DNA of 64,000 nucleotides from a virus. The DNA lies in UHGV virus genome UHGV-1374678; one strand, 5' to 3'. Position 1 is the stretch's first letter, and each line of letters opens with the position of its first letter. Below the pieces are notes generated by a model. The model was not told the DNA's origin. It saw only the letters and a list, made by a program, of their open reading frames with translations, and searched no databases. Below, in pieces: positions 6,635 to 64,000 of the stretch. The translations under genes and the position numbers were made by a program.

Positions 6635-6705
6635 GTATGAGGGCTATATGCCCTTTTACGATTAAATATGACAACAAAAATATAATTTTAAAGGAGAATA
6701 TCCAT

Positions 6706-46202: not shown

Positions 46203-47672
46203 TTGTGCTTGAGCACTTAAATTATTTCACTTGTCTTTTCATCCATTCGCTACATGGATGAGAGCATATTAAATACTCCTCATACTTTCATATGAGAATG
46301 GGACTATATCTTCTATTTGAATAAAATTATTTTGAATTTTTGTTTGAAATGTTTGAGATATTTTGGACATTATAAAAGAGCAGTAGTGATTTACTGCTCT
46401 TGGATATTATATCTTTTCATTTTTAGGTTTATATGACGGACTTCGGTAAATTTCAGTTTTACTCTCAAGTTCCGTTTCAAAATGTGTGATTTTATTTAAT
46501 AACAACAATGTACTTTTTGAAGTTCCACGGGTATAATCTGTATAATACTTTTTAAAAAATGAACAACCTTTATGTTCATTTTCAAATTTAGGATAAATTC
46601 TTTCTTTAACAAGGAATAAATAGAATGTTTCTGCATCTACATATTCCAAAAGATAATCTGCAACTATTTCTGTATATTGCGTGTAAAATCGTGGATTGAT
46701 TTTATACATAACATCATTATTTTCTATAATATCTTCTAATAAATATAAATTTGCTATACGTTCTTCAACCTTGTATTGTTCATATTTTAAAGATTTTTTT
46801 AAATATTCAATTTTCAAATCTCCACTTAATATATCTTTAAATATACGTTCTCTATTTGTAGAAGAAAATTTTAAATCATCTAAATGTTGTATTCCTGCTA
46901 AATGAAAGAAGGAATCATATGGAAAGTGAAGCAATAAATTATATTCTTTTCCTTTTCTTCCAAGCTTAATTTCATATGCAACATGTCTTAATTTTGCATA
47001 TTTTACAGCCGCTTCATACAATATGTCTTGTTGCATTTTATCCCCCGTAAACACAAAAGGCTCTGTTTCAAACAGAGCCCTTTTATGTGATGTTTTCTTT
47101 CGGATCTAGCCTAGTCAGATTGTGGACGAACATCAAACCCCATAATGTCAGTATATACCACTTTTCTGACAAAGCGACATATACCATTTGACAACAGACA
47201 CTCAAGTTGCCTGTTTATAACATTGTAAGAAAGACACATATCTTTCTTAACTATATTATAGCCAATTTAAGAGAAAAATGCTACCCAAAAATACTACAAA
47301 AGTACGCATTTTTTATTATGCAAACATTCCAAAACATACGTTCTATTTTACGTGTTATATATATCTTTTCCATTATAATTTGTTTTATTCAAATAGTCTA
47401 TATTTTTCAAGTCGCCAATCGCTTGCGACCCTACATTAAGGCTTACGCCACCCATAAAGGGTTAGTCTCTGAATGTCTTCCGTATCTGTTGACTTAGGAA
47501 GTTCACTGCGTCTGGGAGACTTGCACTCCCGGTTATCCCTAACCTATTTGTTTTTTATGGTTTCTATCTTTCGACTGGTGAGTTTTAAACTCATACCGCA
47601 TTCACGCTTACCGTTTCCAGTTACGTTGTAGCAAAATAGGGTTATGGGGATGTCCCCGCAATTAAATAGATT
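46203..47672 (-). mobile_element. group I self-splicing intron (approximate bounds) with an internal ORF, between the TMP ORF and the downstream exon
   Basis: On the - strand: P-like AATTGCGGGG (47646..47663); P5 hairpin GGGGACATCCCC; Q-like GACGCAG; P6 CCTAAGTCAACAGAT (47484..47498); R-like TTCAGAGACTAA (47462..47474); GTAA-looped P8 GGCGTAAGCC; P9-like hairpin at 47411..47429. Then an ORF with its own RBS. Confidence 0.55.
46407..47054 (-). CDS. intron-encoded ORF (215 aa), unknown family; no canonical GIY-YIG, HNH or LAGLIDADG motif seen
   Basis: RBS GGGGGAT before the ATG, directly after the hairpin at 47055..47084; followed by the hairpin at 46377..46400. Confidence 0.55.
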   Translation of the reverse strand: MFTGDKMQQDILYEAAVKYAKLRHVAYEIKLGRKGKEYNLLLHFPYDSFFHLAGIQHLDDLKFSSTNRERIFKDILSGDLKIEYLKKSLKYEQYKVEERIANLYLLEDIIENNDVMYKINPRFYTQYTEIVADYLLEYVDAETFYLFLVKERIYPKFENEHKGCSFFKKYYTDYTRGTSKSTLLLLNKITHFETELESKTEIYRSPSYKPKNEKI

Positions 47673-50600: not shown

Positions 50601-53600
50601 GAATCCACTTGTATACACAGTTGCAGTAGAATCTTCTGGAACGTCCCAACCGACATCGTTCATATACTTACCAGAAACTTCAGGTCTATTTGTTAAATCA
50701 ACATTTCCTCTTTCTGTAGTTACTTCAACCGTTGCTTTTTTACCTTCTGTTTTATTGATGGCATTATCAACAGTTGAGTCAAATTTAGATGTATCTGCAT
50801 CAACCGTCATAGTTCCAGAAGTATTGTCAACTTTCTCTTTAGTTTCTTGAGTCTTCTGATCTACCTCTGTTGTATCGGCTTTGTAATGATAGATTCCATC
50901 AAAACTTTTATAAAGTTCTACCTTTTTCCCGTCTTCAAATTCTGCATAGTAATGAATTTCACCATCGATTCTTTGTCCCGAAATTACAGATGACTTAGTT
51001 GTTGTTTTCCCGTTCTCGTCAGTAAATTGAACATCGCCATTAAAAGTAATAGTCTGTCCCTCTTTTAGATTGTCTATTTGTGCTTGGATCTGAGAGAAAT
51101 CTGCATCCGCTTTCATGACAATTAATAAATCATCTGAATATGCAACACCCATCAAATCATTTAATGCTTGTTGCTTTTCAATCTCAAGAGTTGCAATTAT
51201 CTCTGGATCCATATTCTCAATAGTGCTCAGAACACTTTCTTGACTAGACGGATCAATCCCAAGGTCAGTCAGCATCTGTGGGTCTGCATTTTTAATGGTT
51301 TCGTATAAAGTCTTAACTTTATTCTCCGCATCTGTAGTATCAATGTCTATCCCAACGCCTTTTAATGTTTTTTGTCTTTCAAGTTCGTATTTAGCCTGAG
51401 AAAATTCTTTAAGGCTATTTAAAAGATTTGCAGAATCGTTCTTGAGATTTGCAAAATTAACTCCACTATATTTACTTTCGGTAAGAGACTGTTTTTGAGC
51501 ATATAATGCATTAATAGAATTGATCATTGCCTGAGAAGAGCTGTCATTAAATGACTTTCCTTTACCGTTGAGCTTTTGGTTACTTAACAACGCTTTTTGA
51601 ACAAGGGCAATTTGATCGTCAAGATTTTGTTGATTTGTTGAATCAAAATTGATTGTTGCGTCATTAATTCCATGTGTTTTTGCATAGCCCATAGAATATT
51701 TATTAACCAAATTTTGTGTTGTTCTAATAGTTTTTTGTGCTTGCTCTTTAAGTTCATCGGCATTATTTAAGTCCACATCGATACCAATGACTTTATTCGA
51801 TATTTTATCAAGTTCTTCTTCTGCATTTACAATATTTAAATTAGCATCTAGCTCGATACCATTCTCATTTGCAATTTTCTGAATCTCTGTTTCGAGTGCT
51901 TTTGCAACTTCGTCTGTGTCTGTTCCATACGCTTTGGTAGATTTAATTCTATCTCTTTCAGTAAGCAGGGTAGTAATCTGTTCTTTTCCTTGTTTAATCT
52001 TTTCAGCATACTCATCTGCGGAGTGTTTTGCTAACTGTTCTGTAGCAGAGCGTGTTTCTGCTAAATCATTCTGTAATGCAGCGATTTCATTTTTCTTTTG
52101 TGTAATAGCTGTGTTGTCAGCACCAGTGGCTTGCAACTCAGCTAACTCAGCCTGTGCCTTTGCAATTTTCGAAGATAAGTCTGTAATTCTTTCAGCACCG
52201 TCAGCTACAGATCCAACAAAATTATTATGAGCACCATAATCTTCCAATCTGCCAAACATGTCCATGAACCAATCAAAGCTCATACCCATATCTTTAGCAG
52301 CGTCAGTTATGTCTCCAATGTTGTATGTCCATTGTTTACTTCCATCAGCGAGTGCTTGAGAAGCTGCGTATCCCTTTTTCTCTAAATCTGTTAAGAAATT
52401 CTGAACCCCTGTTGCATCTTCTGTCATATATCTTGCTGCTTTGTTATAATTTTCTGCAAAATTTACAGCATCATCAGCACCAGTAGGAGAGAAGTATGCA
52501 GCCCTGGTCTTAAAATCATCTGTGCCAATAAGACCTTTATCAAAGGCTTCTTTTGCTTCTGTCAGATATGTAACACCTTTTACATAATCGTCCCCAGCAT
52601 TTGCGGATTCGTCAGCAGCATCAATTGCAGAAAAGGCACTGTTGTCTTTTAAGTCAATGGCAGTAGCTCCGGCTGCAATCGTATCTTCTATTTTCTTCTT
52701 AAGCTTATCAAAATCATAGCCAACTTCGTCCGCATTGTCACTCATGACAATATCATATGCGGTATTTATCTCTTTGATATTGAGATCGTTTATAGCGTCT
52801 CCAAACTTTTCTTTTAAGACTTTTGTTTTGTCAGAAACTTCTTCTGTCAATTGATCTAACCCGAATATTGTCTTGAAAGAATTTTGTGCCTCCTTATCAT
52901 TCGGGAAGGCATCATCTAAAGCCTTGCTTATTGCGTATTTATAATTTTCAAGATGTAGATTGTCAGGATTGATATTTAATAAATCAGCAATTTTTTCTTG
53001 AGCTTCTGGTTTAAGATCATTCATTGGCTCTATAAACTCAGAATATATGAAACTTGTAATATCTCCATCATAATCATCCATGATAGTATCGATATCAAAG
53101 TCAAAGTCACCAAAATTAGTTGTGAATGCATTTTGTAATTTGGAATCCAAAGATGTAAATTCTGTTGAAGTTTGTAAATATTTCGATACAGAATCACTCA
53201 AAGATTTAAACTGTTCTTTTATTAAAGAATTCTTCTCTTGAACTTTTTTCTTATCTTCGTTAATTTGTTGAGTAAGCTTTTCTTCAGAATTAATTTTGCT
53301 CTCCTCTAACACTTTACTGAGTTCCTTCGCAGTATCTTTGTTCATTGGAGTGGAATAGGTTAATAACCCTGTTTTTTCAGAGTATGTTGACGCAGGAGTC
53401 AAACCGTGTTTCTTTAATACTTTAAGTAGGTCGTTACCTTTAACAAGTGTTGGATCAAAAGAAACCGATTGTTTCTTAAAAATATTTTTATCATTAGCTC
53501 TTTCTGAAATTGCTTTTATTGCATTTTCTTTTTTTTCTATTGAATTTTCAAGATCTGTTCTATCATTAGAATATACTTTAATTTGTTCTTTAATTCCATC

Positions 53601-54248
53601 AAATGCATCTTGCAAATCTTCTCCAATTTTAATATGGGAAGAGTTTAAAGAAGCGTCATACAATTCGTTTAAAGATTTTGCAGCAGTGGCTGCATTGTTT
53701 CCAATATTTAAAATTGCATTTCCCTGTGCGTCATAACCTGCAACTATTTCCGGGAATACATTAGCTAATTGATTCGACGTATCAATATAAGATTGATAAT
53801 CTTCATCGCTTAACAACTTGTTAGAATTATCTGAGTTTACGCCTTCTTTTAATTCGGCATACTTTTTAGCAACTTCATCAATTGCATCCCCAGTGCTTTT
53901 TATTTCTTCTGGATTTTTTGCAAAACTTTTCCCAAGATTTTCTATAGAATTTTTATTTTCAGAAAAAGTCTTGAAAGTAGAGTCAATGGAAGCCTTTGCC
54001 TCCTCTCCTTTTTCAATTAGTTTTTCTGACCGATGAATATAATCATCAATTAATTCTATTCCTTTAGTTATTATAGCGGAAGCAGCCATGCTAATTCCAA
54101 AACTTGCGATTGAAGAGACAAAAGTTCCTGCAAAATTTTTCACGCCAGTTTTTAATTTTGACATGGTAGAAGAAAATTTGCTTTGAGAACTTGTTGCTTC
54201 TTCTGTAGCAACTTGAAATTCACTATAACTGATTTTCCCTTCTTTCAA
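47673..54248 (-). CDS. tail tape measure protein, main part (2191 aa, TTG start; frame open a further 92 codons upstream)
   Basis: Long coiled coil; hydrophobic segment FAGTFVSSIASFGISMAASAII; S/N low-complexity run; sits upstream of Dit and Tal. Confidence 0.8.
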   Translation of the reverse strand: MKEGKISYSEFQVATEEATSSQSKFSSTMSKLKTGVKNFAGTFVSSIASFGISMAASAIITKGIELIDDYIHRSEKLIEKGEEAKASIDSTFKTFSENKNSIENLGKSFAKNPEEIKSTGDAIDEVAKKYAELKEGVNSDNSNKLLSDEDYQSYIDTSNQLANVFPEIVAGYDAQGNAILNIGNNAATAAKSLNELYDASLNSSHIKIGEDLQDAFDGIKEQIKVYSNDRTDLENSIEKKENAIKAISERANDKNIFKKQSVSFDPTLVKGNDLLKVLKKHGLTPASTYSEKTGLLTYSTPMNKDTAKELSKVLEESKINSEEKLTQQINEDKKKVQEKNSLIKEQFKSLSDSVSKYLQTSTEFTSLDSKLQNAFTTNFGDFDFDIDTIMDDYDGDITSFIYSEFIEPMNDLKPEAQEKIADLLNINPDNLHLENYKYAISKALDDAFPNDKEAQNSFKTIFGLDQLTEEVSDKTKVLKEKFGDAINDLNIKEINTAYDIVMSDNADEVGYDFDKLKKKIEDTIAAGATAIDLKDNSAFSAIDAADESANAGDDYVKGVTYLTEAKEAFDKGLIGTDDFKTRAAYFSPTGADDAVNFAENYNKAARYMTEDATGVQNFLTDLEKKGYAASQALADGSKQWTYNIGDITDAAKDMGMSFDWFMDMFGRLEDYGAHNNFVGSVADGAERITDLSSKIAKAQAELAELQATGADNTAITQKKNEIAALQNDLAETRSATEQLAKHSADEYAEKIKQGKEQITTLLTERDRIKSTKAYGTDTDEVAKALETEIQKIANENGIELDANLNIVNAEEELDKISNKVIGIDVDLNNADELKEQAQKTIRTTQNLVNKYSMGYAKTHGINDATINFDSTNQQNLDDQIALVQKALLSNQKLNGKGKSFNDSSSQAMINSINALYAQKQSLTESKYSGVNFANLKNDSANLLNSLKEFSQAKYELERQKTLKGVGIDIDTTDAENKVKTLYETIKNADPQMLTDLGIDPSSQESVLSTIENMDPEIIATLEIEKQQALNDLMGVAYSDDLLIVMKADADFSQIQAQIDNLKEGQTITFNGDVQFTDENGKTTTKSSVISGQRIDGEIHYYAEFEDGKKVELYKSFDGIYHYKADTTEVDQKTQETKEKVDNTSGTMTVDADTSKFDSTVDNAINKTEGKKATVEVTTERGNVDLTNRPEVSGKYMNDVGWDVPEDSTATVYTSGFSNEAGDKTIVVTPILPNGDVYSPEELKSYAQELLNGGEDTDGLKIRTYYGEDSVEQANRYAEALHLVQDQFYLGDEAQKASLSSLKDYSEQQLKSIDLTDNQTSAMEDSLSTLMQSMNIDPSYLNEFVDVLSDMGLIKVDVDTTEADAKIDGILSRPDDNTIYMKVDATTDQVQAQLNQLKTGQELYFTANVDNVPTQIEAVKTESGEIAYIANVDGVNYYLDEVKNEDGTVSYEMGDHPKIAPTINGLANYTKALFPNSAPTLTGKVTYYASTVNMPQTNVASKVASAVKKGASSASGTAHTFGTINPRMYGSAYANGNISDTSWLKSSWRTKKSEGSLVGELGQEIVVDPKNGKWRTVGDNGAEFTRIPQGSIVFDANQTKQLLSSGFINSRGTALAHGTAHAGYGGTSGVTFGTGGSGSKATSSSKKKKSSSNNNSSSNNNSSSDSSSKDASENVIDWIETLLSRVKRITDLAVDAIDRAIGLVNKQVKAADAISKVQSEIKTNQQAAQAYLNAANAVGLSETYASKVRNGTLNIETIKDSDLNDKISKYKTYYENYLSALDNVLTLEDKLTELAEKRLSIIEDEYDAIENLKESIKDGLKENRTLLENLGTAIDNHQNTDSIQKSIQTQSEIYDSLTKKLSDYQAEVNSQLNSGLMKKGSEQWYDTMKNIQDFTTNITKASSELIELQDQLRQISYDTLQNIIDGFSRRVDKLSSYVDLLEAQDKEVPETVYQEQIDNNNANIKKQYDLRNQYLKEQSVYDVNSKRYQELADKISSADTEILKLQKDNEDLKDSIYDLRMTNIEKAIQSYSDLEDELSGFRALLNEDAFLDKQGGITEDGLAQIALLSQSLGNAKQKISDYTTGLQKLQELYQNGVISLDEYNEKSQEYRKGIQDSTQDVKSYQDSLIDLYKNAMSTEVEYLDKIISKRKEALQRKAEYYDYDKKIKNQSKDINSLKAQIAALEGVKLLHL

Positions 54249-54494
54249 TGCCTTTGCCGAATCGACAAGCTTTTTATCAACATCCCCAAGCGATTTTCCA
54301 AGCGCTGCCGTTGTAATATTAAGTGGTTTTTGTTGTAAGTTTTCTAGATTTGTTCCGCCTTCTGTTACAGAAGAAATTAATTTGCCAAAACTGCGATTTG
54401 CTTTTATTTGGTTTTCAGATTTTGGCGTAAATAAATTAGAAAAAATAGAACTAAAACCGTTTTCTTTGTCATAGCTTAAAATCGTTTTTTTAAT

Positions 54495-54523
54495 TGATAT
54501 AATTATATTACTTGCAATAATAT
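54495..54523 (+). promoter_or_regulatory. sigma70-like promoter for the island gene 54549..55004
   Basis: TTGATA - 17 nt - TAATAT, 25 nt upstream of the ATG. Confidence 0.4.
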
Positions 54524-54548
54524 ATTATTTGAAAATGGAGGAGAGTTT

Positions 54549-55004
54549 ATGAATATCAAATACTGTCCAGAATGTGCGAAATGTAAAAAATCAATAGAAG
54601 ATCCTGAAGATTTTTATGCTGGATATCAAGTCTATTTTTTTCAAGATAAAATTGGGAAAACATGTCAAATTTGTAACAAGGATACGTTAATAGAAACAAA
54701 CATAACTGAAGATGAGCTTCATGAAATAGGAGAAGCGTCAAACTATAATCCTTCTTTTCTCAAAGCCATGCGTGAACTCAAAGAAAAAGACATCATAGAA
54801 TATGAACTTAAAATGTCACAGTTCCGGTCACAAGTCGAACAGAAAAACAAAGCAAGAGAAGAAGCAAATCGTCCGAGGTGTCCGAAGTGTGGTTCTACCT
54901 CAATTGCAACGACAACTCGTGGTTACTCATTTTGGACAGGATTTGTCGGCTCTGGTAAACCAATGAACGTGTGTCAAAATTGTGGTCATAAGTGGAAGAT
55001 ATAA
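54549..55004 (+). CDS. double zinc-ribbon protein (N-terminal CPEC..C..C, C-terminal CPKCG...CQNCGHKW)
   Basis: RBS TGGAGGAGAGTTT ATG; the 3' end is the source of the 42-nt repeats. Confidence 0.6.
54954..54995 (+). repeat. repeat copy 1 (native 3' end of the zinc-ribbon gene)
   Basis: GGTAAACCAATGAACGTGTGTCAAAATTGTGGTCATAAGTGG. Confidence 0.55.
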
Positions 55005-55305
55005 CACGAATATTTTATCCAAAGCACAAATACGCTCTTGTTTTTTTGCTAACTGCTTTTGATAAATATAAGTTTTCTTCATAAAAATATCACCTACTTT
55101 AAAAATATTTATTTTTAGAACGTTTGCAACATTTGTTCCTGTGTTCATTTTCAAGAACCTTACACCTACGGTTGTATTCTTTAACATAAGAAGCAGGGAT
55201 ATAGTTTGTATCTTCTATTGGCTTGCTTAATTCTACCATATAACCTATTAACATTTTTTCAATATTACAAATAAAGACCATCTCCTTTAAGAAAGTGTGA
55301 TATGT

Positions 55306-56061
55306 ATGGATAAAAATATATTAAAAATCTACGGATTAACTGGTGCGTATTGTAAATTTATGGGAATTACTAAAATGCCAAAATTTAAAGTAAAAACATT
55401 TAAAGGTGGAAATGCATCTGCGTATATTTCCTATCAAAATAATTCTCAAATATTTAATATAGAAGAAAACTATATTAATGTTTTAAAACAAAACGCACTA
55501 CCTCTTATTTATCATGAATTTACTCACATTGTAGATAACGAAAGTTTTCTTCCAGAAGTGAGTGCAAAAACAAAAATTCCATTCATAAAAATGTTATCGG
55601 AATATAGAGCTATTCAAGTTCAAATGAAAATAAGCATGAATTTTGAAATCTATAATGAAGATAAAAAGTTTTCATTTGATGATAAAACACATGATTGGTT
55701 TGAAGAAAAAACCGTAAAAGAAGATATAGTATATAAAACTGAAGATTTTGTTGCAACGATAAAAAATCTTTTAAGTAAAAAAGAAAATAATTATACTTAT
55801 TTTTTAGTTCTACATTGTGTGTATTACCAGAGCATGTGTGATTTTTGGAAAGAATATTGTATTAATGAAGTTCAACATCTATTAAAAGAAGATATAATAA
55901 ATACTTTATTTGGATTAGAATTTGATATTTTCCATCATATGTTATCAAAAATAGATAACAAAGATATAAATTATTTTAAATTACTGTTATCATCTCAGAA
56001 TAAAATGGTCGGATATTTTGGATTATATGAAGACGAAATCATAAAAACATTAAGCGTATAG
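55306..56061 (+). CDS. HExxH-motif protein (putative ImmA/IrrE-like or other zinc metallopeptidase)
   Basis: LIYHEFTHIVDN; start ATG at 55306 inside track ORF 55297..56061. Confidence 0.55.
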   Translation: MDKNILKIYGLTGAYCKFMGITKMPKFKVKTFKGGNASAYISYQNNSQIFNIEENYINVLKQNALPLIYHEFTHIVDNESFLPEVSAKTKIPFIKMLSEYRAIQVQMKISMNFEIYNEDKKFSFDDKTHDWFEEKTVKEDIVYKTEDFVATIKNLLSKKENNYTYFLVLHCVYYQSMCDFWKEYCINEVQHLLKEDIINTLFGLEFDIFHHMLSKIDNKDINYFKLLLSSQNKMVGYFGLYEDEIIKTLSV

Positions 56062-56151
56062 AAATAAATTATTCTTAATGTACAGCGAAAAGTGATATCT
56101 GTCGGGAAGAAGATCAAAGGATCTATATTGTTTGGTTTATTCAGCAACGAT

Positions 56152-56193
56152 GCTAAAAAACAAATGAGATGCAAGGATTGTGGATATAAATTT
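56152..56193 (+). repeat. repeat copy 2 (remnant zinc-ribbon 3' end, ...MRCKDCGYKF*)
   Basis: GCTAAAAAACAAATGAGATGCAAGGATTGTGGATATAAATTT; same frame as the upstream gene after two stops. Confidence 0.55.
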
Positions 56194-56334
56194 TAATCAA
56201 ATAAATGTGCAATCGTATAGCAAAATAATTTTATCCTTAAAAGTAAAATTGACATTCTTTTCTTTTTTACTTCTTTTGAGTAAACATAATTATCTTTCAA
56301 AATAAAATCACCTACGCTTTCTGGAGGAATGAAT

Positions 56335-56496
56335 ATGACAAACGAAAATAACAAAAGTATAAAGCAAACTACAGCAGATAAAAACAAGCAAAAAGATACT
56401 CGTAAACCATTACCGAAAGCTAATATAATTGGTAAACGCTTAGAGATATTTAACATGGATTTAAATGTTATATACAAGAAGAATAAGAAAAAATAG
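56335..56496 (+). CDS. small basic protein (53 aa)
   Basis: Strong RBS CTGGAGGAATGAAT ATG; below the ORF-track size cutoff. Confidence 0.5.
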   Translation: MTNENNKSIKQTTADKNKQKDTRKPLPKANIIGKRLEIFNMDLNVIYKKNKKK

Positions 56497-56692
56497 CATT
56501 TTACTTAGTTTTTTATACTTTTGGTTTCTTTCCATGCAGCAAATGCCATTCTACATTTTTTGAATTCTTGATCTGCAATTTTGTCTTGTTTTTTATTAAA
56601 ATCATCACATATTTTTTGCTGCTTAAAGGAAAGACAGAATATTTCTTGTCGCATTCCTATAATATGTGCTTTTGGCAAAGGAGATTTTTTTA

Positions 56693-57223
56693 ATGAGTTC
56701 ATATAACGATATCCTTTCTTTTGAAAATGACTACTACAAAGAATTATATTACGATGGTGCAAAACAGAGAGATAGGATAAATAGTAAATTTACACCAACA
56801 ATAACATTATTAACTGCTGAAACATCTGGAATCATTTGGATTATCTTCAATTTAGTGAAGAAGATGAAGTCGTTTAATTTTATATCAATTACAGCAACAA
56901 TAATCTTGTGTTTTATAATTTTATTTGGGTTAGTAGCTCTTGTGAATTTTTTATTTTGTTTTTTAAAATATGGCTTTCTATATCCAAAACCAGCCGATGT
57001 GAAAAATTTTATTAAAGAAAATAAAACATATATTGGTGAATATACAGAAAAAGAGATTGTTGATAATATTGTAGAACAAATTTCTTCTGAATATATTACA
57101 ATGGCAATTAAAAATAATAAAGAAATAAATAACAGGTCAAAATATCTGAACAAGTGTTACATAGGAATTGTGTACACGTTGTTATTTATGATTATTGAAT
57201 TCCTAATATTATTATTTATGTAA
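56693..57223 (+). CDS. three-TM membrane protein (candidate abortive-infection / exclusion effector)
   Basis: RBS AAAGGAGATTTTTTTA ATG; TM helices IIWIIFNLV, ISITATIILCFIILFGLVALVNFLF, IGIVYTLLFMIIEFLILLF. Confidence 0.6.
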   Translation: MSSYNDILSFENDYYKELYYDGAKQRDRINSKFTPTITLLTAETSGIIWIIFNLVKKMKSFNFISITATIILCFIILFGLVALVNFLFCFLKYGFLYPKPADVKNFIKENKTYIGEYTEKEIVDNIVEQISSEYITMAIKNNKEINNRSKYLNKCYIGIVYTLLFMIIEFLILLFM

Positions 57224-57261
57224 AAGTATAATAAAATATAATTGTTTTATTAAGTAAGAAC

Positions 57262-57304
57262 GCTAAAAACAAAATTTGAACGTAAGGATTGTGGATATAA
57301 GTGG
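57262..57304 (+). repeat. repeat copy 3 (remnant zinc-ribbon 3' end, ...ERKDCGYKW*)
   Basis: GCTAAAAACAAAATTTGAACGTAAGGATTGTGGATATAAGTGG; 15/18 identical to copy 1 across the Cys-codon core. Confidence 0.55.
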
Positions 57305-57328
57305 TAGGAGAACATGGATGTTTTTGAA

Positions 57329-57541
57329 CTACCGATCATACAAACTAATTAAAACTTTTCCAAGTTCAAGAGCAATGGCTTCATCAAAGTCTTCTGCGAT
57401 TAATTTTGCTAATTCACATGTTGGATGACACAAAACAAAATCTTCATCATCCGATAATTTGCTTTTACCAGTTTTTGGAGCAAGTTCGTTCCAATAATAA
57501 CTAATAAATTTACCTGTTTTCGAATGATCCATATCATTCAC
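57329..57541 (-). CDS. small acidic protein (GTG start), divergent from 57567..58031
   Basis: 70 aa; weak RBS; only 25 nt from the divergent gene. Confidence 0.35.
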   Translation of the reverse strand: MNDMDHSKTGKFISYYWNELAPKTGKSKLSDDEDFVLCHPTCELAKLIAEDFDEAIALELGKVLISLYDR

Positions 57542-57566
57542 CTGCCTTTCAAAAAATGGAGAAATT

Positions 57567-58031
57567 ATGAGATTAAATCACGATTATATTAGAAACATTC
57601 TTCTTTTTATAGAAGAGAACTTAAATTATAAAGAATATACTGATATGCCATCATATCATAAAACACCTTCTTTTGCAGAAGTATTATCTGATGAGTATTT
57701 TGTGGACTACAACCAAGAAGAACTTTTGTATGCAATGGAACTTCTAATACGAGAGAAGTATATTCAATGTACAAAAGAGCCATATTTTGTAAATGGTAGT
57801 CTTATGAGCGCAGACATTGTTGGATTGACATGGAACGGATATCAATTTCTTGATAATGTAAGAAACGATACTGTTTGGAATGCAGTAAAAGAAAAAGCAA
57901 AACAATATGGTCAATTTTCAATCAAGACATTAGCATCCGCAGCAGGTTCTTTATCTGTAGCTTTAATGAACGATACAAACGCTATTCAGAATTTTTTACA
58001 AGGTGTTGGTAATATAGTTAAAATTATTTGA
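57567..58031 (+). CDS. DUF2513-like (YjcQ-like) winged-helix protein
   Basis: N-terminal MRLNHDYIRNILLFIEEN; internal DIVGLTWNGYQFLDNVRNDTVW; RBS TGGAGAAATT ATG. Confidence 0.5.
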   Translation: MRLNHDYIRNILLFIEENLNYKEYTDMPSYHKTPSFAEVLSDEYFVDYNQEELLYAMELLIREKYIQCTKEPYFVNGSLMSADIVGLTWNGYQFLDNVRNDTVWNAVKEKAKQYGQFSIKTLASAAGSLSVALMNDTNAIQNFLQGVGNIVKII

Positions 58032-58150
58032 AGTGACTTTACTATTGAAACTAATAATGTAATTACTGAAATAATCATTGACAAGTTTTGGTATTTTTCT
58101 GAAAGCTTCAATAGTGGCATAAAAATTTTATCATTAATAAAATCAGACAT
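57986..58150 (-). CDS. small single-TM protein (54 aa from the internal ATG)
   Basis: RBS GAGGTAATAAC ATG; TM segment LSMIISVITLLVSIVKSLQIILTIL; overlaps the 3' end of the convergent + gene. Confidence 0.35.
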   Translation of the reverse strand: MSDFINDKIFMPLLKLSEKYQNLSMIISVITLLVSIVKSLQIILTILPTPCKKF

Positions 58151-58212
58151 GTTATTACCTCGAAACAAAAGAATGGCATTGTAATAGCTGTGGAAGTGAC
58201 TTTTAAATCAAT

Positions 58213-58238
58213 AAAAGACACCGATTAAGGTGTCTTTT
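58213..58238. terminator. bidirectional rho-independent terminator
   Basis: AAAAGACACC-GATTAA-GGTGTCTTTT with T runs on both strands. Confidence 0.6.
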
Positions 58239-58241
58239 AAT

Positions 58242-59255
58242 TTAATTAGAATATATAGATAACGGTGCAACAATACTACTTACTTTTGATTCTAATACAA
58301 CATTACTTTCTATTACTGCATCTTCAGTTGTCACATCTAATAAGTGTGGTTGACTCATCGTTTTAATCACTTCTATAACATCAAGTATTGGAAATTTTGA
58401 TCTTGAAACTAATTCTTTACAAACCAAACGATCCAAAGGAGAACATAAATTGATTTCCTTTGGCATATTCCCATTTGCGTTGATAAATTGTTTTACAATA
58501 TTCCAACCTTCATAGAAAATCTCCATAAAAGATTCGTCATATGGAACTGGACATACAATTAAATTTTTTGTTTCATGTTGATAAATTTTATCGGATTTCC
58601 CTTGAGCAGAAGGAACTATCCCAAGTCTTAAACCTCTTGCACCTTCTAATTGCTTTGGATTTATTTTAACAGTTGTACCAACCCATTTGTCTACATCTGT
58701 ATTTCCAACAAATAAATCTGCTTTCCATAAACCATTTATGCTACTAGGAAGTTTTTCTCTCTCTTTTGGTTTTCTGAACGATGAAACAACTCCGTTTATA
58801 TGTCTTTTTAATTTTATTGGCTTCCCTTTTTTACCTGTTAACAATATAGAATCATCAGTCAGATGTTCTTTTACACTGTCAATAAACTGTATTGTATTTG
58901 CTTCTTTTTCTACGCCAAACAAAATAGAAGATGGATCGTTCCCTTTTATGTTGCAGAATTTTGAAAGTGCAGAATCTATTCTGTTCAAAACATTTGGATC
59001 TTTTGATATGATTGCATCATGTACCGCATATTCAAAACAAATTCCACAATCTCCATCACCAGGACTGTATAATCTTGTAAATAATTCAAGTGTTATTTTG
59101 TCGTATCCACCGATCTGGTTTATTATGTCTTGTTTTATAGTATGCACCAAACCAGTTAAAATAGGATGAATAACAGAGAATAATGCTTCGTATTCAGAAT
59201 TAACTGCATTTGTTTGAATGCATTTTATTTTTTTAATCATTTTTATTCTCTCCAT
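58242..59255 (-). CDS. 337-aa protein of unknown family (candidate defence / nuclease-like), divergent from the XRE regulator
   Basis: No recognised motif; alone between terminators. Confidence 0.6.
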   Translation of the reverse strand: MERIKMIKKIKCIQTNAVNSEYEALFSVIHPILTGLVHTIKQDIINQIGGYDKITLELFTRLYSPGDGDCGICFEYAVHDAIISKDPNVLNRIDSALSKFCNIKGNDPSSILFGVEKEANTIQFIDSVKEHLTDDSILLTGKKGKPIKLKRHINGVVSSFRKPKEREKLPSSINGLWKADLFVGNTDVDKWVGTTVKINPKQLEGARGLRLGIVPSAQGKSDKIYQHETKNLIVCPVPYDESFMEIFYEGWNIVKQFINANGNMPKEINLCSPLDRLVCKELVSRSKFPILDVIEVIKTMSQPHLLDVTTEDAVIESNVVLESKVSSIVAPLSIYSN

Positions 59256-59355
59256 TTATTTTCTCCTTTTATTATACGACACAATATGACAAAGTACAAT
59301 TCAAAACATATGTTCTAATATATGCTAACAAGTACAAAAGCATCAGATTTTATAT

Positions 59356-59384
59356 TTGACCCAATTCCATTTTCTTCCTATAAT
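59356..59384 (+). promoter_or_regulatory. near-consensus sigma70 promoter (TTGACC-17-TATAAT) for the XRE gene
   Basis: Read directly from the sequence; 38 nt upstream of ATG 59422. Confidence 0.5.
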
Positions 59385-59421
59385 AATACACATCATCTTT
59401 TTTACTCGGAGGGTGCAATAC

Positions 59422-59628
59422 ATGAATTATTTTTCAGAAAACCTTTTATATTATAGGAAGAAACGTGGAATGACACAAAATGATATTGCCAGAAAAGTAT
59501 TTGTTAAGCATCAGACAATCTCAAATTATGAAAAGAACACAAGAACCTGTGATTTGAACACACTTGTTTTACTTTCCAATGCTCTTGATATCACACTGGA
59601 TGAATTGATTAAAAATCCACATCCATAA
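59422..59628 (+). CDS. XRE-family HTH transcriptional regulator
   Basis: GMTQNDIARKVFVKHQTISNYEKN...; RBS GGAGGGTGCAATAC ATG. Confidence 0.7.
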   Translation: MNYFSENLLYYRKKRGMTQNDIARKVFVKHQTISNYEKNTRTCDLNTLVLLSNALDITLDELIKNPHP

Positions 59629-59642
59629 TACTTAGTTGTATG

Positions 59643-59822
59643 TAGGAATACCAACAAACACAAGACCTTTTACATTATGAGCATCTATACTTTTACCTGC
59701 TTCTTCATAACTTGTGAATTTTGTTTCCGATACAACCTTGTGATCAAATTTACCTTCTGTATTTTTCGTTACCTGAATTCCAATGACATCTACACCTATA
59801 TTTTTCATCATATCTTTCCTCC
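59643..59822 (-). CDS. small protein (59 aa), co-transcribed downstream of the - strand XRE gene
   Basis: RBS GGAGGAAAGAT ATG placed 4 nt after the HTH gene stop; below the ORF-track size cutoff. Confidence 0.5.
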
Positions 59823-59826
59823 ACTC

Positions 59827-60030
59827 TCAGAGTTTGAATATATCTTCAACAGACACACCAAGAGCATGGGCAAGTTTGATAGCTGTATAAACATGTGGGT
59901 TTTCAAGAGGATTATTTTCTATCAAACTTATTGTAGAATGTGACACATTGCTTTTCATAGCAAGTTGTGTTTGTGACCAATCTTTTTCCCATCTTAATTC
60001 CTGCAATCTGTTACGCATATATTCACACAC
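59827..60030 (-). CDS. XRE-family HTH transcriptional regulator (Cro/cI-like)
   Basis: LRWEKDWSQTQLAMKSNVSHSTISLIENN... Confidence 0.7.
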   Translation of the reverse strand: MCEYMRNRLQELRWEKDWSQTQLAMKSNVSHSTISLIENNPLENPHVYTAIKLAHALGVSVEDIFKL

Positions 60031-60151
60031 CCTTTTATTTTTAGTATGTGTAAATTGAAGCTTCTTCTTTACAAGAAAATAATACCAATAATTTTTGCAT
60101 AGAAGTAGAACAGTTTTTTATGGAAATTACGTAACTTTTTCTATATTCAGT

Positions 60152-60173
60152 TATATACTATATATAGTATATA
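60152..60173. promoter_or_regulatory. perfect 22-bp palindrome TATATACTATATATAGTATATA (operator candidate)
   Basis: Lies in the divergent intergenic region upstream of the - strand XRE gene. Confidence 0.5.
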
Positions 60174-60275
60174 CATTTTCAGATGTGTATGAACTAATGT
60201 TCTGTATTTACCATTTTTAGTGAAAATGATATAATATTTTCTGATAGATAGTTATGATGCAAACCTGTACCATCA

Positions 60276-60617
60276 TTGTATGCGCGCACTATCCATCAAA
60301 AAAACAGGGAGTACCAGTGTAAGACTGATACGGTTCGAAAAATTAAAGAGTGTCTAAAATTCAGGGTGTTCTGCCCATTTTATTCCCTCGTAATTAACAT
60401 TCTTACAGAAGGGAGGGTAGAGTTGAATTTACTAGAATTAATAGTAAACAACTTAGACATTAGTATAATTGCAGCTTGCGTAATGTATTTCATTCACGAA
60501 GCTTTCAAATTTGCAAGTGTTATTGTGATTTCCAAGTCCGATAATCTTACAGATAAGAAAGCTCAAGCAATTGCAAAGATAATGTCATTTAGATTCGACT
60601 TTCGAATCAAAAAATAA
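60276..60617 (+). CDS. small membrane protein; likely true start at TTG 60423 after RBS GGGAGGG (65 aa)
   Basis: TM segment ISIIAACVMYFIHEAFKFASVIVI; the 5' 140 nt of the track ORF looks like a structured leader. Confidence 0.4.
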   Translation: MYARTIHQKNREYQCKTDTVRKIKECLKFRVFCPFYSLVINILTEGRVELNLLELIVNNLDISIIAACVMYFIHEAFKFASVIVISKSDNLTDKKAQAIAKIMSFRFDFRIKK

Positions 60618-61203
60618 TTTCTGAATTTTGTCATTTTTCATTTTTAATTTTTCCTTTAATTCAATTATGCTCCGTGGAGTCCATATCTTCACGGAGTTCT
60701 TTATATTATATTCTCCAATAGGAGATAATATTTGTTTTATGTTTTTTATACTCATTAAGTTTTTGCAAGTCATCAATGAGTTTGTGTGATTTGTGTCAAT
60801 AGGGTAGTAGTAGACTACTTGCATATCCCCTACGACTTCCACAGGCTTTCCCCGTGGTCACGGACTGTATGTTTGAACCAATAGTACAATTACGCCTGTA
60901 CTACGTCATGCCTTGTCAGCCTCTCGCACGATACATGAAACCACACTTTCATTTTTATTGTAACGTGTCGGGACTACCGTTTTCGTATTTCTACTTATTT
61001 CTTCGTGAACATAAGATTTAATCTTACGCTTTTATTGCATCACTCCGATACCATATTTGTATGGCTTACGGCTTCCCCCGAAATTCGGCATATTTTGATT
61101 TTAGTTAAATCAAGGTGGATAGAAGATATGTATGTTCATATTACTTCATATTCTCTCTACGTTAAACATATGGCATTGTTATATGTCCTTATAGAAATAG
61201 GCA

Positions 61204-64000
61204 TTAAAAACTATGACGTTTACCTCCACCTTTACTTTTTAAAGATGCTACAGCAGATATTGTACCTATGATTGCTGGTATTCCACCGAATGTATCAACA
61301 ATTTGTGTTAATACTTTTAAAAATTCATTTGCACCTTCAACAGCAGTTTTAAAAAGATCAGAGCCTAAGAAGCTTGTTGAAAAATCCTGAAACGTACCTT
61401 TGATTTGCTCGATACTATATTCAATACCTTTCTTATAATTTTCCAACTCTTTCTCTGCTGATCCAGATGAATTTTCTGCTGTTTCATAAGCACTCTTAAT
61501 TACGTCTACATTATTAATAGCGGCTGCGAGTGCGTTTGACTGATTCTTACCAGCCAATGTTTCGAGCAAGTCTGCTCGATTAATATCTGAAAGGCTTGAC
61601 CACCTTTCACCGATTCCTACAACAATATCATAGATATCTTTATAGGTATCTTTATCCTGCATGATGTCAAAGCCACCTGTCAGTGCTTTGACTTTTGCTT
61701 GTAATTTTGAGGTTGAGGTTATAAGACCATCTGTGTCCTCGTTCATCTCACTAAGCTCAGACTCTGAACCTCTAAGTCTGGCACTAACCGTTTTCCACAT
61801 ATTACCGACCTTATCTGGATCCTGTAATGTAGTATTGGTTCCAGTAATCAAAGCAATTGACTTTGATAAACTTGTATGACTCGCATTAAATGACGCAGCA
61901 CTTCTCTGTAAAGCGTCACCAATTCCATCACTTCCGATTGCGAAATTATTTGCTACCTCATTAAGTTTATCCACAATCGATTCTGCTTGCGAAGCCTGCA
62001 TATTATAACCCTGAAGGATTGATACAAGACTTTGCGATGCAGTTTCTTGAGTCATGTTATCTCCGACTCGCTGATACAATGTTGTTGCATCAGATGATTT
62101 CTTAGCGTCTTCAAGATTATAACCCAATTTTGACCAGTCAGCAGTACTGCTAATTACGTCACTGACTGTCGCACCATATTTTTGTGCACTTGCAGTTGCT
62201 TCATCCCAGTAATTTTTCAATTCTGTATCAGAAGCATTGCTTACTTTTCTTAATTCAATCTGTGCAGCATTAACTTCCCTTACTGCACTAACAACTTTGG
62301 ATGGGAACTGCATCATTGTATTCTGTAATATATAATACATCCCGGTAAACTGAGCAATCTGTCCAAAAGCACGCTTCATATCTGCCCATGTAGAAGACCC
62401 TGTTAGACCTTGAGATTTAATCTCTGCTTGCAACTGCTTTGCTTGGCGAGCTGCATCAGCCTGATCCCCTTTTGTCTGAGCATTAGCCTTCGCTTGATAA
62501 ATGGATTCCATCCGATCTTTGTATTTTGACCATGCTTTAGTATTGCTGTTCATATAAGCTCGGAACTCATTTGCGTCCTTTTGTGCCTCGCCTTTCCCAA
62601 GCGTTTTAGACTCCACTTGTTTTACTTCTTGCAAAGCATTCTTATACTTAGTTACTGATTTTTCAAGGTTTTCATAAAGAGAAGAAACATGTGACGTATC
62701 TATATTTTCCGCTGTTAATGCACTTGTAATTTCTGTTTGATACGCATTTACTTGCTTTGCCAATGAACGAAGTTTTTCTAAATGGGTGCTCGACTGACCA
62801 GTATATTTACTAAGTTCAGTTTCCATCGTTGTTGTTCTAAGACTGAACTCCCCAGACTCTGCCTTGTCTCTAATGGAAGATAGTTTGGTCAACGCTTCTT
62901 TGCGTTGCTTTACCTCTACCATAACTGCACTTAGTTCTTTATCTACAGACTCTTTGCCAGATGAAGTTAATCCGTCAGTATATTTCCCCTGAATCTTAGT
63001 CAAACTTTCTGACTGAGCCTTTGTCATAAATTCAGAATATTCTTTCTGGAAATTGGCAATCTTTTCCCTTGCTTTATCGAGAGAAGACATATTCAAGGAT
63101 TTTTCCATGGTAGACTCTACAGTACCCATAGAAGCCTCAAAAGCCTTCGTAGCAGCAGTTAAATTATTAAATTCTCTTTCAATTTCTCCTAGGGAAGCAC
63201 CTGTAGAAATCAGGCTTTTAAGACGATTTTGCGAATCAAGAATTTTCTGACTCCAATCTTCTGCATTTGTCAAATCAGAAGATGTTTGTCCAGAATAGTT
63301 AGAAATACGATTTTCTCTTTTTGCTCTCGATGTAGTTATAGCTTCGTCTGTTACCAAAGCTTTTGCTTTTTCTCTAATGGAAGATAATTTGGTGTTTTCA
63401 GCAGCCATCAAAGAGTTCTGTCGTTTTGTGTAAGCATCATGTTCGGCTTTTGCTGACTTGTCCATATCAGCGATCCATTTTTCCTGTTCAGCCTTTTGAG
63501 CTTCGTGATATGCTTTTTGTGTAGCAAGACGATTCTTTTCTGCTTGGTTTTCCTTTGCCTGCTGTCGAGCTTCTACACCCATTTCATAATCAGATTTAGC
63601 ATTTCGATAAATACGTGCTGATCGATTTTCGTATTCGTCGTTATAAAATCCACGATCTTTTGCTTCTTTAAGATATTTTCTTCTGTCGAGAATAGATTTT
63701 TCTAAATCAGCCATTCTTGCTTTTGTCTGTTGATATTCTTCTGGCTTAACATTCCCTTTTGATACCTTCGTCTTTAACTGATAATATTCTGTTATTTCTT
63801 TATTTAAGGCACCGTATTCTTTTTTTAAATTAATAACTTCTTTCTCAGAAGTAGTTACTCCATTAACAGTCTTTATGTTCTTTCCGTTAGAGTATGTTGT
63901 GTCTGTGACAGTTTTATCTCTCCCTTTGGTTATAGTTGTCTTGTCAATATTCTTAGATTGTTTATCTACATTTTTTCCACCTTGATTATTGCCAAAAGCC
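61204..64000 (-). CDS. TP901-type tape-measure N-terminal fragment (5' end beyond window; frame open to the edge)
   Basis: TMP core-like GSDGIGDALQRSAASFN...GTNTTLQDPDKVGNMWKTVSARLRG; hydrophobic C-terminus FGGIPAIIGTISAVASL; long coiled coil. The - strand frame has no stop between 63715 and 64000. Confidence 0.65.
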   Translation of the reverse strand, partial: AFGNNQGGKNVDKQSKNIDKTTITKGRDKTVTDTTYSNGKNIKTVNGVTTSEKEVINLKKEYGALNKEITEYYQLKTKVSKGNVKPEEYQQTKARMADLEKSILDRRKYLKEAKDRGFYNDEYENRSARIYRNAKSDYEMGVEARQQAKENQAEKNRLATQKAYHEAQKAEQEKWIADMDKSAKAEHDAYTKRQNSLMAAENTKLSSIREKAKALVTDEAITTSRAKRENRISNYSGQTSSDLTNAEDWSQKILDSQNRLKSLISTGASLGEIEREFNNLTAATKAFEASMGTVESTMEKSLNMSSLDKAREKIANFQKEYSEFMTKAQSESLTKIQGKYTDGLTSSGKESVDKELSAVMVEVKQRKEALTKLSSIRDKAESGEFSLRTTTMETELSKYTGQSSTHLEKLRSLAKQVNAYQTEITSALTAENIDTSHVSSLYENLEKSVTKYKNALQEVKQVESKTLGKGEAQKDANEFRAYMNSNTKAWSKYKDRMESIYQAKANAQTKGDQADAARQAKQLQAEIKSQGLTGSSTWADMKRAFGQIAQFTGMYYILQNTMMQFPSKVVSAVREVNAAQIELRKVSNASDTELKNYWDEATASAQKYGATVSDVISSTADWSKLGYNLEDAKKSSDATTLYQRVGDNMTQETASQSLVSILQGYNMQASQAESIVDKLNEVANNFAIGSDGIGDALQRSAASFNASHTSLSKSIALITGTNTTLQDPDKVGNMWKTVSARLRGSESELSEMNEDTDGLITSTSKLQAKVKALTGGFDIMQDKDTYKDIYDIVVGIGERWSSLSDINRADLLETLAGKNQSNALAAAINNVDVIKSAYETAENSSGSAEKELENYKKGIEYSIEQIKGTFQDFSTSFLGSDLFKTAVEGANEFLKVLTQIVDTFGGIPAIIGTISAVASLKSKGGGKRHSF

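Follow-up and report, generated by a model that had tools for sequence, protein, structure and literature searches.

Accessory genes of phages, such as morons and the accessory genes of the P2/P4 hotspots, have conserved phage genes on either side, and mosaic junctions are said, from work by Juhala and Hendrix in 2000 and by Pedulla in 2003, to arise by illegitimate recombination. For the locus reported here, in which an intact zinc-ribbon (ZR) gene is followed by small accessory genes separated by 3' ends of other ZR genes, we considered two further systems. First, the orphan cdiA-CT/cdiI and rhs-CT arrays of Rhs/CDI loci (PMC3150448) consist, like the ZR array, of a full gene followed by same-strand, 5'-truncated 3' fragments that lack translation starts. 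In both, a fragment and its downstream gene or genes form a module that other genomes carry after an intact gene, and in both the head genes are chimeric, with exchanged C-termini. Rhs/CDI arrays also carry a conserved VENN or PxxxxDPxGL motif that sets off the variable tip and the point from which orphans are homologous; this tip is a toxin, and its immunity protein is encoded by the downstream gene. Second, in the PeSL cassettes of T4-type phages, as in the ZR array, short repeats flank non-essential ORFs in a plastic phage region and coincide with the boundaries of insertions, deletions and replacements between close relatives (PMC2839356, PMC4122927). Each PeSL repeat carries a strong early promoter and a terminator stem-loop, recombination between repeats yields mini-circles (PMC2839356, PMC4122927), and shuffling mediated by PeSL is documented (PMC2839356).

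The ZR array lies in UHGV virus genome UHGV-1374678, of which one stretch of 64,000 nucleotides was analysed (the window). The array belongs to a big temperate siphophage of Lachnospiraceae/Clostridia, in which two large tail genes flank the low-GC hotspot that it occupies. This accessory block runs antiparallel to the late genes and its content varies among relatives. As in moron hotspots, it occupies a fixed position between conserved genes, but its cargo lies inside one transcription unit rather than in self-contained promoter-gene-terminator units, and the gene on its left flank leaves a serial record of stubs.

That gene, ZR1 (54549–55004, + strand), is intact and encodes 151 aa laid out as an N-terminal ribbon, a conserved helix, a linker and a C-terminal ribbon of type 1. 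Sigma-70-like promoter candidates precede it at 54476–54523 on the + strand (TTGATA-16-AATAAT with a TG extension, 10/12 matches, by consensus only). A ZR profile found nothing below E = 0.005 among PDB sequences, and an AlphaFold model of ZR1 (pLDDT 79.7) retrieved only generic zinc ribbons from the PDB with Foldseek (E ≥ 0.1). A weak match to Ogr/Delta (E = 0.0024) fell under our cut-off and was not counted as evidence. Behind ZR1 and a promoter-like leader (55005–55097, +; TTGATA-18-AAAAAT) lies cassette 1 (55099–56061, both strands), in which a 60-aa ORF (−, 55099–55281) stands head to head with a 254-aa HExxH protein (+, 55297–56061). Cassette 2 (56329–57223, both strands) has its own 5' leader (56197–56318, +) and comprises the small basic protein S1 (+, 56329–56496), the small protein S2 (−, 56505–56702) and a protein with three transmembrane segments (3-TM; +, 56693–57223). 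Module 3 (57329–58031, both strands) again pairs a 70-aa ORF (−, 57329–57541) head to head with a DUF2513 protein (+, 57567–58031). A bidirectional intrinsic terminator (58212–58239; −12.2 kcal/mol, z = −3.0) closes the + strand array; it is the sole strong terminator of the island and is conserved in the related loci L001, L002, L003 and L005. The cassettes are each at most 1.1 kb and encode no recombinase.

A preliminary description of this DNA had reported three diverged direct repeats of the ZR 3' end around cassettes 1 and 2. The repeats are where it placed them and exceed chance, by pattern search and by HMM scan of the 64 kb. With up to three mismatches, GATTGTGGATATAARTGG matched only 54978–54995, 56176–56193 and 57287–57304 in the window, against a chance expectation of 0.16 matches, and three matches were reached in 0/100 shuffles. 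An HMM with 42 positions, built on the C-terminal zinc ribbon (CT) of ZR, scored 86.8 bits over positions 1–42 in the C-terminal segment of ZR1 (54870–55004, +; this includes copy 1), 40.4 bits for copy 2 (56095–56190, positions 10–41) and 16.4 bits for copy 3 (57257–57304, positions 27–42), while the top unrelated match anywhere in the window scored 9.9 bits. The encoded ends CKDCGYKF and KDCGYKW, each followed by a stop codon, read as first described, whereas the core TGAACGT, thought to be common to all three, is present in copies 1 and 3 and absent from copy 2. Both downstream copies are longer than the 42 nt originally assigned to them. Copy 2, hereafter relic 2 (56087–56196, +), is an open frame that covers the last 35 codons of a ZR paralog of type 2 and lacks the parent's start codon, and copy 3, hereafter relic 3 (57239–57307, +), keeps about 21 codons from a 3' end resembling type 2 and contains a 1-nt frameshift. 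Aligned as DNA, copies 2 and 3 match each other at 38/53 columns, while copy 1 reaches only about 55% identity with them (33/59 columns for copy 2 and 32/59 for copy 3). An additional fourth copy, relic 4 (58165–58206, +), encodes TKEWHCNSCGSDF followed by a stop codon, and the terminator starts 5 nt further on. The relics do lie in the frame of the preceding genes, but this agreement is a coincidence: two to three stop codons intervene and the frame is not kept in L005, on which grounds we also rejected a cargo–relic fusion by read-through or frameshift.

The resident gene at 54549–55004 had been taken as the source of the repeats, through its 3' end. Instead, each relic comes from a ZR allele or paralog of its own. 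Over 111 nt, relic 2 shares 85.6% identity with the 3' end of ZR2, the intact second paralog of L001, against about 55% with ZR1, and relic 3 is 77% identical to the same ZR2 over 70 nt. Relic 4 is the 3' end of a fifth CT type, whose intact end, KEWHCNECGSDF followed by a stop codon, is present in L166; shorter vestiges (NSCGSDF, NECGSDF and EMHCKDCRSDF, each with a stop codon) occupy the place of relic 4 in L001, L003 and L166. A ZR1-type relic (92% identical) lies behind other cargo in L005. The relics are 5'-truncated ZR genes, not target-site duplications, and they probably persist as non-coding remnants.

These parentages bear directly on the original idea of repeated insertion or capture at one target. 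Site-specific insertion into the 3' end of a resident ZR gene with target duplication, as by integrative elements at the 3' ends of tRNAs and other genes, would account for repeats that are direct, stand at cassette boundaries and all cover a gene 3' end. However, every copy is a different ZR allele, nearer to an intact relative elsewhere than to the resident ZR. In addition, the copies vary in length, the 5' half of a disrupted ZR gene lies upstream of no cassette, and neither an integrase or other recombinase gene nor a hairpin site was found in the island. Because left ends range from HMM position 5 to 33, the relics share no common core. This explanation is already contradicted, and we regard it as extremely improbable. 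An integrative element with att repeats was rejected because the repeats are not copies of ZR1 and there is no integrase per unit; the single integrase is that of the phage (31752–33038), about 21 kb from the island.

We then considered the relics across 169 related loci (designated by L numbers), which held 40 non-redundant relics; 23 are truncated and 17 consist of the CT alone. Of the truncated relics, 22/23 follow a full ZR that is on their own strand. On the left, breakpoints are scattered over HMM positions 5–33 and the linker, and on the right the relics end at the stop codon; the central helix is kept in a single relic, and true 5' fragments number about two or three in total. The repeats were neither absent from homologous islands nor unrelated to cargo boundaries there, as the relics mark module boundaries in about 20 independent phage or prophage arrays. 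The proposal that the two cassettes were independently acquired also agrees with their distribution. L005 has cassette 2 (94% over 1385 nt) but no cassette 1, cassette 1 occurs in another order and context in L168, after a ZR1 relic truncated down to the CT (94.7% over 742 nt), and both are absent from L001, L002 and L003. Homologs of the HExxH protein, which belongs to a 7-member orphan family, directly follow a ZR-like gene in L170–L172 (52–54% identity), and the cassette 2 module exists in four diverged variants. Module 3 is found as a 94–96% identical unit at other positions in L166–L169 and stands directly behind an intact ZR in L166.

Wherever another locus permits the test, a relic is inherited with its downstream cargo. 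The sequence downstream of the L009/L014 relic (HMM positions 6–42) recurs behind intact genes in L017 (100% over 250 nt) and in L012; the L035 relic matches the region following intact genes of L076, L083 and L085; and an intact P0004 gene accompanies a 50-aa TM gene in L166, while its counterpart beside the same TM gene in L005 is a relic. One downstream module is preceded by a relic from position 13, by a relic from position 20 or by none, with different upstream DNA each time. At every module boundary the ZR 3' end comes from another allele, and the same module is found elsewhere behind an intact ZR. The C-terminal type is not strictly bound to cargo, as type 1 precedes at least five different things, so there must be further exchanges that take place at the stop-codon boundary.

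The head genes are themselves chimeric, one N-terminus being found with four C-terminal types. Conservation of ZR DNA peaks at the central helix (coding segment 54749–54838, +, the proposed homologous anchor) and at the C-terminal ribbon before falling away sharply at the stop codon; the central-helix segment collects 34–54 HSPs per bin, and the N-terminal part 9. Close relatives cease to match either within 54830–54899 or exactly at the stop codon: identity ends at 54830 for L003 and at 54898–54899 for L166/L167.

Taken together, we think it probable that ZR heads a + strand accessory operon in which modules, each a CT with its cargo, have been stacked by recombination that displaces the old 3' ends. 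Under such a scheme, ZR would be the head gene of an operon running from a promoter near 54500 to the terminator at 58212–58239, and an incoming module, consisting of a ZR C-terminus and its cargo, would come from a related phage or prophage. The first crossover would be homologous, in the conserved 5'/central-helix segment of ZR, and the second junction would be illegitimate or use short homology slightly downstream, within the linker or C-terminal ribbon of the resident. The head gene would remain intact, often chimeric with a new C-terminus, while the resident C-terminal stub and all cargo behind it would be shifted downstream. Repeated rounds would give the order ZR1, cassette 1, relic 2, cassette 2, relic 3, module 3, relic 4 and terminator, and the process would formally be the C-terminal displacement by which orphan arrays arise in Rhs/CDI loci. 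The one strong terminator, behind relic 4, agrees with this. On the other hand, no junction could be mapped at single-base precision from both parental sequences, and microhomology could not be shown. A left-to-right age gradient of relic decay holds in the window, L005 and L167 and was rejected as a general rule: relic length or score decreases from left to right in about five arrays and increases in four, and because of this inconsistent trend the expectation that the newest module is leftmost is not generally confirmed.

The array could also have begun as tandem paralogs, with intact units of ZR and cargo whose inner ZR genes were deleted under packaging pressure, and with stubs surviving beside downstream ribosome-binding sites. 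Arrays of two to four intact tandem ZR genes do exist (four in L094, three in L107, two in L001, and also L034), so some relics could stem from later deletion. The same downstream module can follow a continuum from intact gene to CT-only relic to short stub to nothing, the relics are abutted by cargo stop codons and downstream ribosome-binding sites, and relic 3 differs from its L005 counterpart by about 14%, as other non-coding stretches do, compared with 2.5% in coding DNA. However, random deletion should also leave 5' and central-helix stubs, whereas about two or three of the former and one of the latter stand against 40 C-terminal relics. Moreover, in L042/L048 compared with L036/L037/L046, differing breakpoints are each joined to different upstream DNA, and these are therefore new junctions rather than products of trimming. 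Erosion is an unlikely origin of the relics, and we continue to favour stacking by displacement.

The similarity between copies 1 and 2 continues for about 95 nt past the stop codon (55005–55097 resembles 56197–56318), and a promoter-like leader repeated after two ZR 3' ends recalls PeSL. The promoters in these two leaders are consensus-level matches only. The leader repeat is confined to cassettes 1 and 2, and no element is common to the downstream side of all ZR stop codons. PeSL are non-coding promoter-plus-terminator units with a stem-loop, whereas the ZR relics are derived from coding sequence, unstructured and of varying extent; no stem-loop was found in the relics, and no repeat pairs one with a strong promoter. 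If the relics nevertheless acted as recombination linkers like PeSL, a core of about 20 nt at the second knuckle, TGYAARGAYTGTGGATAYAARTGG, with the leader in some cases, would be kept as homology for shuffling or excision. Relics 2 and 3 do share a 17-nt identical run, module order differs between the window and both L166 and L168, and all six differences between the window and L005 in the two relic cores are transitions at third codon positions, which would suit copying from functional ZR genes, although this amounts to six sites only. Against this, the relics do not start at one shared point and some keep just 7–13 codons, their upstream halves are frameshifted and decay at a neutral-looking rate, and secondary structure in relics 1–3 is no better than in shuffles (z = +1.0, −0.1 and −0.2). 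With no universally conserved downstream element either, we consider active linkers improbable.

Known recombination machinery was likewise not apparent in the island. Pfam searches of its ORFs found no recombinase domain and no reverse transcriptase, and there are no inverted repeats at the relic sites, where hairpin or attC-like structures were rejected. Integron cassettes were dismissed accordingly, as there is neither IntI among the island ORFs nor attC at the relics. A diversity-generating retroelement was rejected because the copies are 55–72% identical with indels and their differences are not adenine-specific. The phage does encode an AAA_24 protein (6637–7839), predicted from this Pfam family to be a Sak4-type phage recombinase, and its presence is in keeping with the displacement scheme. 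The cargo itself gave few clues: DNA from 54300–58100 had no match among 50,697 GenBank phage records, the HExxH protein had no relative in IMG/VR, and the island proteins matched only DUF2513, HTH and function-unknown PHROGs families in searches of Pfam, PADLOC, PHROGs and NCBIfam.

The ZR array is no new kind of molecular machine. It differs from the Rhs/CDI arrays in lying within a phage accessory operon, in displacing a conserved zinc ribbon of 42 aa rather than a variable toxin domain, and in that the variable part consists of whole downstream genes. The relics also lack a motif like those that demarcate homology in Rhs/CDI genes, there is no evident toxin/immunity relationship, and the C-terminal type does not strictly co-vary with cargo. 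More speculatively, ZR might be a dedicated "docking gene", whose central helix and C-terminal ribbon serve as portable homology arms for capturing, stacking and reshuffling cargo in large gut phages, all within a single pre-existing promoter-terminator unit, with relics that are still exchanging. We hold this to be possible but doubtful; if true, it would be a protein-coding counterpart to integron and PeSL cassette systems, operating by C-terminal displacement without a dedicated recombinase. On the reading we favour, by which modules are stacked through displacement of ZR 3' ends, the array is a readable record of the module-by-module assembly of a phage accessory (moron or defence-like) island, and it places an orphan-array architecture known from Rhs/CDI toxin loci in gut Lachnospiraceae phages, with a small zinc-ribbon head gene. 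The relics would serve as precise markers delimiting independently mobile cargo (the HExxH protein, the S1/S2/3-TM module and the DUF2513 pair), and they nominate the conserved ZR segments as natural homology arms.

The three diverged direct repeats that the preliminary description had noted are real, as the core pattern occurs at those three sites only (chance expectation 0.16 hits) and, against a profile of the C-terminal ribbon (CT) shared by the zinc-ribbon (ZR) family, copies 1, 2 and 3 reach 87, 40 and 16 bits, with a background maximum of 9.9 bits over 64 kb. Copy 1 is the 3′ end of the head gene, ZR1 (54549–55004, +). Copy 2 (56087–56196) retains 35 codons in frame (ISVGKKIKGSILFGLFSNDAKKQMRCKDCGYKF, then a stop codon), and copy 3 (57239–57307) retains ~21 codons, interrupted by a 1-nt frameshift (…LSKNAKNKI / ERKDCGYKW, then a stop codon). 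A fourth copy (TKEWHCNSCGSDF, then a stop codon) was found at 58165–58206, 5 nt before a bidirectional terminator (58212–58239) that is the sole strong one of the island. The ~95 nt 3′ of the stop codon are likewise repeated between copies 1 and 2, forming two leaders (55005–55097 and 56197–56318).

The window belongs to the large, siphophage-like genome of a temperate phage. Replication and nucleotide-metabolism genes occupy the + strand at 1–31 kb, including Pol III alpha, a DnaB-like helicase, NAD ligase and NrdD (anaerobic ribonucleotide reductase, 25172–28531), which contains an intein that includes a LAGLIDADG homing-endonuclease domain (Pfam Intein_splicing, LAGLIDADG_3, Hom_end). The − strand at 31–54 kb and 61–64 kb holds the integrase, amidase and tail genes. 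The repeats lie in a low-GC block of ~7 kb (54250–61200; 25–28% GC vs 31–38% elsewhere in the window), flanked by a 2191-aa gene (47673–54248, −) and a PhageMin_Tail tape-measure-like gene (836 aa, 61204–63714, −). Two related loci, L170 and L171, have an accessory island at the same position between these two genes. A PBECR4 (Barnase/EndoU/ColicinE5-D/RelE-like) nuclease gene (46407–47054, −) sits among the tail genes, directly downstream of the 2191-aa gene, and the island holds two HTH_3/XRE-type genes in opposite orientation (59356–59628, +; 59827–60030, −), resembling a CI/Cro pair and far from the integrase gene (31752–33038). Relatives of the window are 90–205 kb contigs from IMG/VR or metagenomes, and ZR-family loci in bacterial genomes are nearly all from Lachnospiraceae/Clostridia MAGs; a DNA search of GenBank phages (50,697 records) with 54300–58100 gave zero matches.

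The ZR1 family has >500 members, built, from the N-terminus on, of variable zinc ribbon(s), a highly conserved helix (24 residues), a linker and a C-terminal ribbon of at least five sequence types. Since one N-terminus is found with several CT types (proteins P0004, P0006 and P0010 of L003), C-termini are swapped between ZR genes. The repeats had been attributed to the 3′ end of the resident gene, which was not borne out: copy 2 is 85.6% identical to the last 111 nt of ZR2, an intact second paralog that follows ZR1 (97% aa identity) in L001 (IMG/VR), and only ~55% identical to ZR1. Copy 4 corresponds to the terminus of a type-5 CT, and L166 has this CT intact (KEWHCNECGSDF, then a stop codon). 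The ZR1 CT of the window is itself a start-less stub in L167 and L168, followed in L168 by cassette 1 (94.7% over 742 nt), and a 36-codon stub (92%) behind unrelated cargo in L005. As the copies match different ZR alleles in these loci, the repeats are 5′-truncated relics of several alleles and did not arise by duplicating the 3′ end of the resident gene.

Six-frame translations of 165 related loci, and of 4 fetched later, were surveyed with the CT profile (≥12 bits). This yielded 209 complete CTs, 39 3′ fragments, 9 apparent 5′ fragments (mostly split alignments inside intact genes) and zero internal fragments; after clustering at 90% identity, the truncated relics numbered 23 and the CT-only copies 17. 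All but one of the truncated relics (22/23) lie on the same strand as an intact ZR, 0.2–5.6 kb downstream of it. Their left breakpoints are spread evenly over profile positions 5–33, and their right ends lie at the end of the profile, which is the ZR stop codon, or at most about five positions short of it. A single relic (in L092) keeps the central helix. L005 has one intact ZR and four relics in 3.4 kb, each between cargo units. The relics do not mark one target, and the idea of a single insertion target at the ZR 3′ end was dropped. Target-site duplication by an integrative element was rejected because relic 2 shows such low identity to the resident ZR1 and the cassettes have no recombinase, integron attC sites because copies 1–3 have no inverted repeats and fold no better than shuffled sequence and the island no recombinase (Pfam), and DGR repeats because copy differences are not adenine-specific and no reverse transcriptase was found among the island ORFs (Pfam).

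Wherever another locus permits the test, the relic is inherited with the DNA downstream of it. The L009/L014 relic is followed by the same sequence as intact genes are in L017 (100% over 250 nt) and in L012, and the L035 relic matches the region 3′ of intact genes in each of the loci L076, L083 and L085. A single downstream module occurs in three forms, with a relic from position 13 (L042/L048), with a relic from position 20 (L036/L037/L046) or with no relic (L047/L049), and the upstream DNA differs between the two relic forms. Cassette 2 (94%) follows relic 2 in the window (from position 10) and a relic in L005 (from position 33), and the same 50-aa TM gene accompanies an intact P0004 in L166 and a relic in L005. 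Module 3 (a 70-aa ORF and a DUF2513 gene, 57329–58031) comes after relic 3 in the window and in L005, and directly after an intact ZR in L166. Homologs of the HExxH protein of cassette 1 (55099–56061; 52–54% identity) lie immediately 3′ of a ZR-like gene in the same hotspot in L170–L172. These correspondences between relics and intact genes indicate that the unit of inheritance is the ZR C-terminus plus its downstream cargo; the combinations and order of modules vary among genomes. The proposal that the repeats delimit independently acquired cassettes is upheld, as relics are true cassette boundaries and modules recur in other loci and contexts.

As a three-gene module, cassette 2 recurs in four diverged variants (window 56329–57223; L005 5100–8301; L166 7691–8568; L167 8907–9784), in which the small basic S1 (+) and small S2 (−) proteins share a variant-specific motif of 12–17 aa (PLPKxNIIGKRxEIF, RPKLxPRDVSSIRxGxF or SPLGNRKLTxRT). 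As the S1/S2 arms have higher amino acid (67–92%) than nucleotide identity (64–69%), with mismatches by codon position of 19/13/39, selection seems to act on both strands at the protein level, and an RNA hairpin was rejected on these grounds. In all three cargo modules, a small − strand ORF lies head to head with a larger + strand gene, and the start codons are so close (55281/55297, 16 nt apart; 57541/57567, 26 nt apart) or overlapping (56702/56693, by 10 nt) that there is no intergenic space for promoters; these pairs may exert mutual antisense control. The DUF2513 gene, intact in the window (57567–58031, 154 aa), appears in L167 (8250–8714) and L168 (2822–3286) as two separate ORFs of 51 and 98 aa, despite 95.6% nucleotide identity to the window. 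Searches of Pfam, PADLOC, PHROGs and NCBIfam gave no match pointing to a function for the cargo proteins, and the ZR structure model (two ribbons and a long connecting helix, pLDDT 79.7) had no fold match in the PDB. Promoter-like sites of the + strand array lie before ZR1 and in both leaders, and its one terminator lies after relic 4, an arrangement that would suit a single accessory operon read against the late genes.

Across loci, conservation of ZR DNA peaks twice, at the central helix (54749–54838) and at the CT (54869–55004), and is lost abruptly at the stop codon. In the closest relatives, the match with the window ends at 54830 in L003, at 54898–54899 in L166 and L167–L169, and precisely at the stop codon in L001 and L002. 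A local island of conservation is formed by the ZR promoter and 5′ half (54441–54830), which are 86–92% identical to five related phages, and the adjoining start of the 2191-aa gene (53652–53924) is only 63–65% identical. We infer a one-sided homologous anchor in the 5′/central segment of ZR, with a second, illegitimate or short-homology junction slightly downstream within the resident ZR gene. Such an event would keep one intact head gene, install a new C-terminus with its cargo, and displace the old C-terminal stub and everything behind it downstream. This fits the presence of 3′ relics only, the almost complete loss of the helix and the chimeric head genes. Much would also be explained by erosion, in which redundant internal ZR copies are progressively deleted from intact tandem arrays such as those of L094, L107 and L001; however, erosion predicts more 5′ stubs and helix-containing stubs than were observed. 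Besides the one-sided anchor, clean homologous exchange within the CT would account for the finding that one CT type stands before five or more different cargos, the sequences diverging from the stop codon on. The order of arrival in the window would be a type-5 ZR with the terminator, module 3, cassette 2 and a ZR1-type CT with cassette 1, which agrees with relic decay there (35 intact codons, 21 frameshifted codons and 13 codons), although this gradient is not general (~5 arrays decreasing vs 4 increasing).

Two features hint at a recombination role for the conserved relic core: relics 2 and 3 share an identical run of 17 nt, and 6/6 differences between the window cores (56176–56193, 57284–57304) and those of L005 (7264–7281, 8362–8382) are transitions at third codon positions, even though the relics have no start codon. 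Conversion from functional ZR copies could account for this pattern, as could chance; outside the core, relic 3 differs between the window and L005 by an indel and mixed changes. Against such an active linker, the relics have neither a common extent nor structure and otherwise decay like non-coding DNA.

Overall, the original observation is confirmed and extended, and its first interpretation was right about the boundaries but not the origin. In orphan cdiA-CT/rhs-CT arrays, start-less 3′ fragments, each with its own downstream gene, are lined up behind a full gene (PMC3150448), and the displacement logic proposed for them is the same as that proposed here for the ZR array. The array is a phage version of these C-terminal displacement/orphan arrays.
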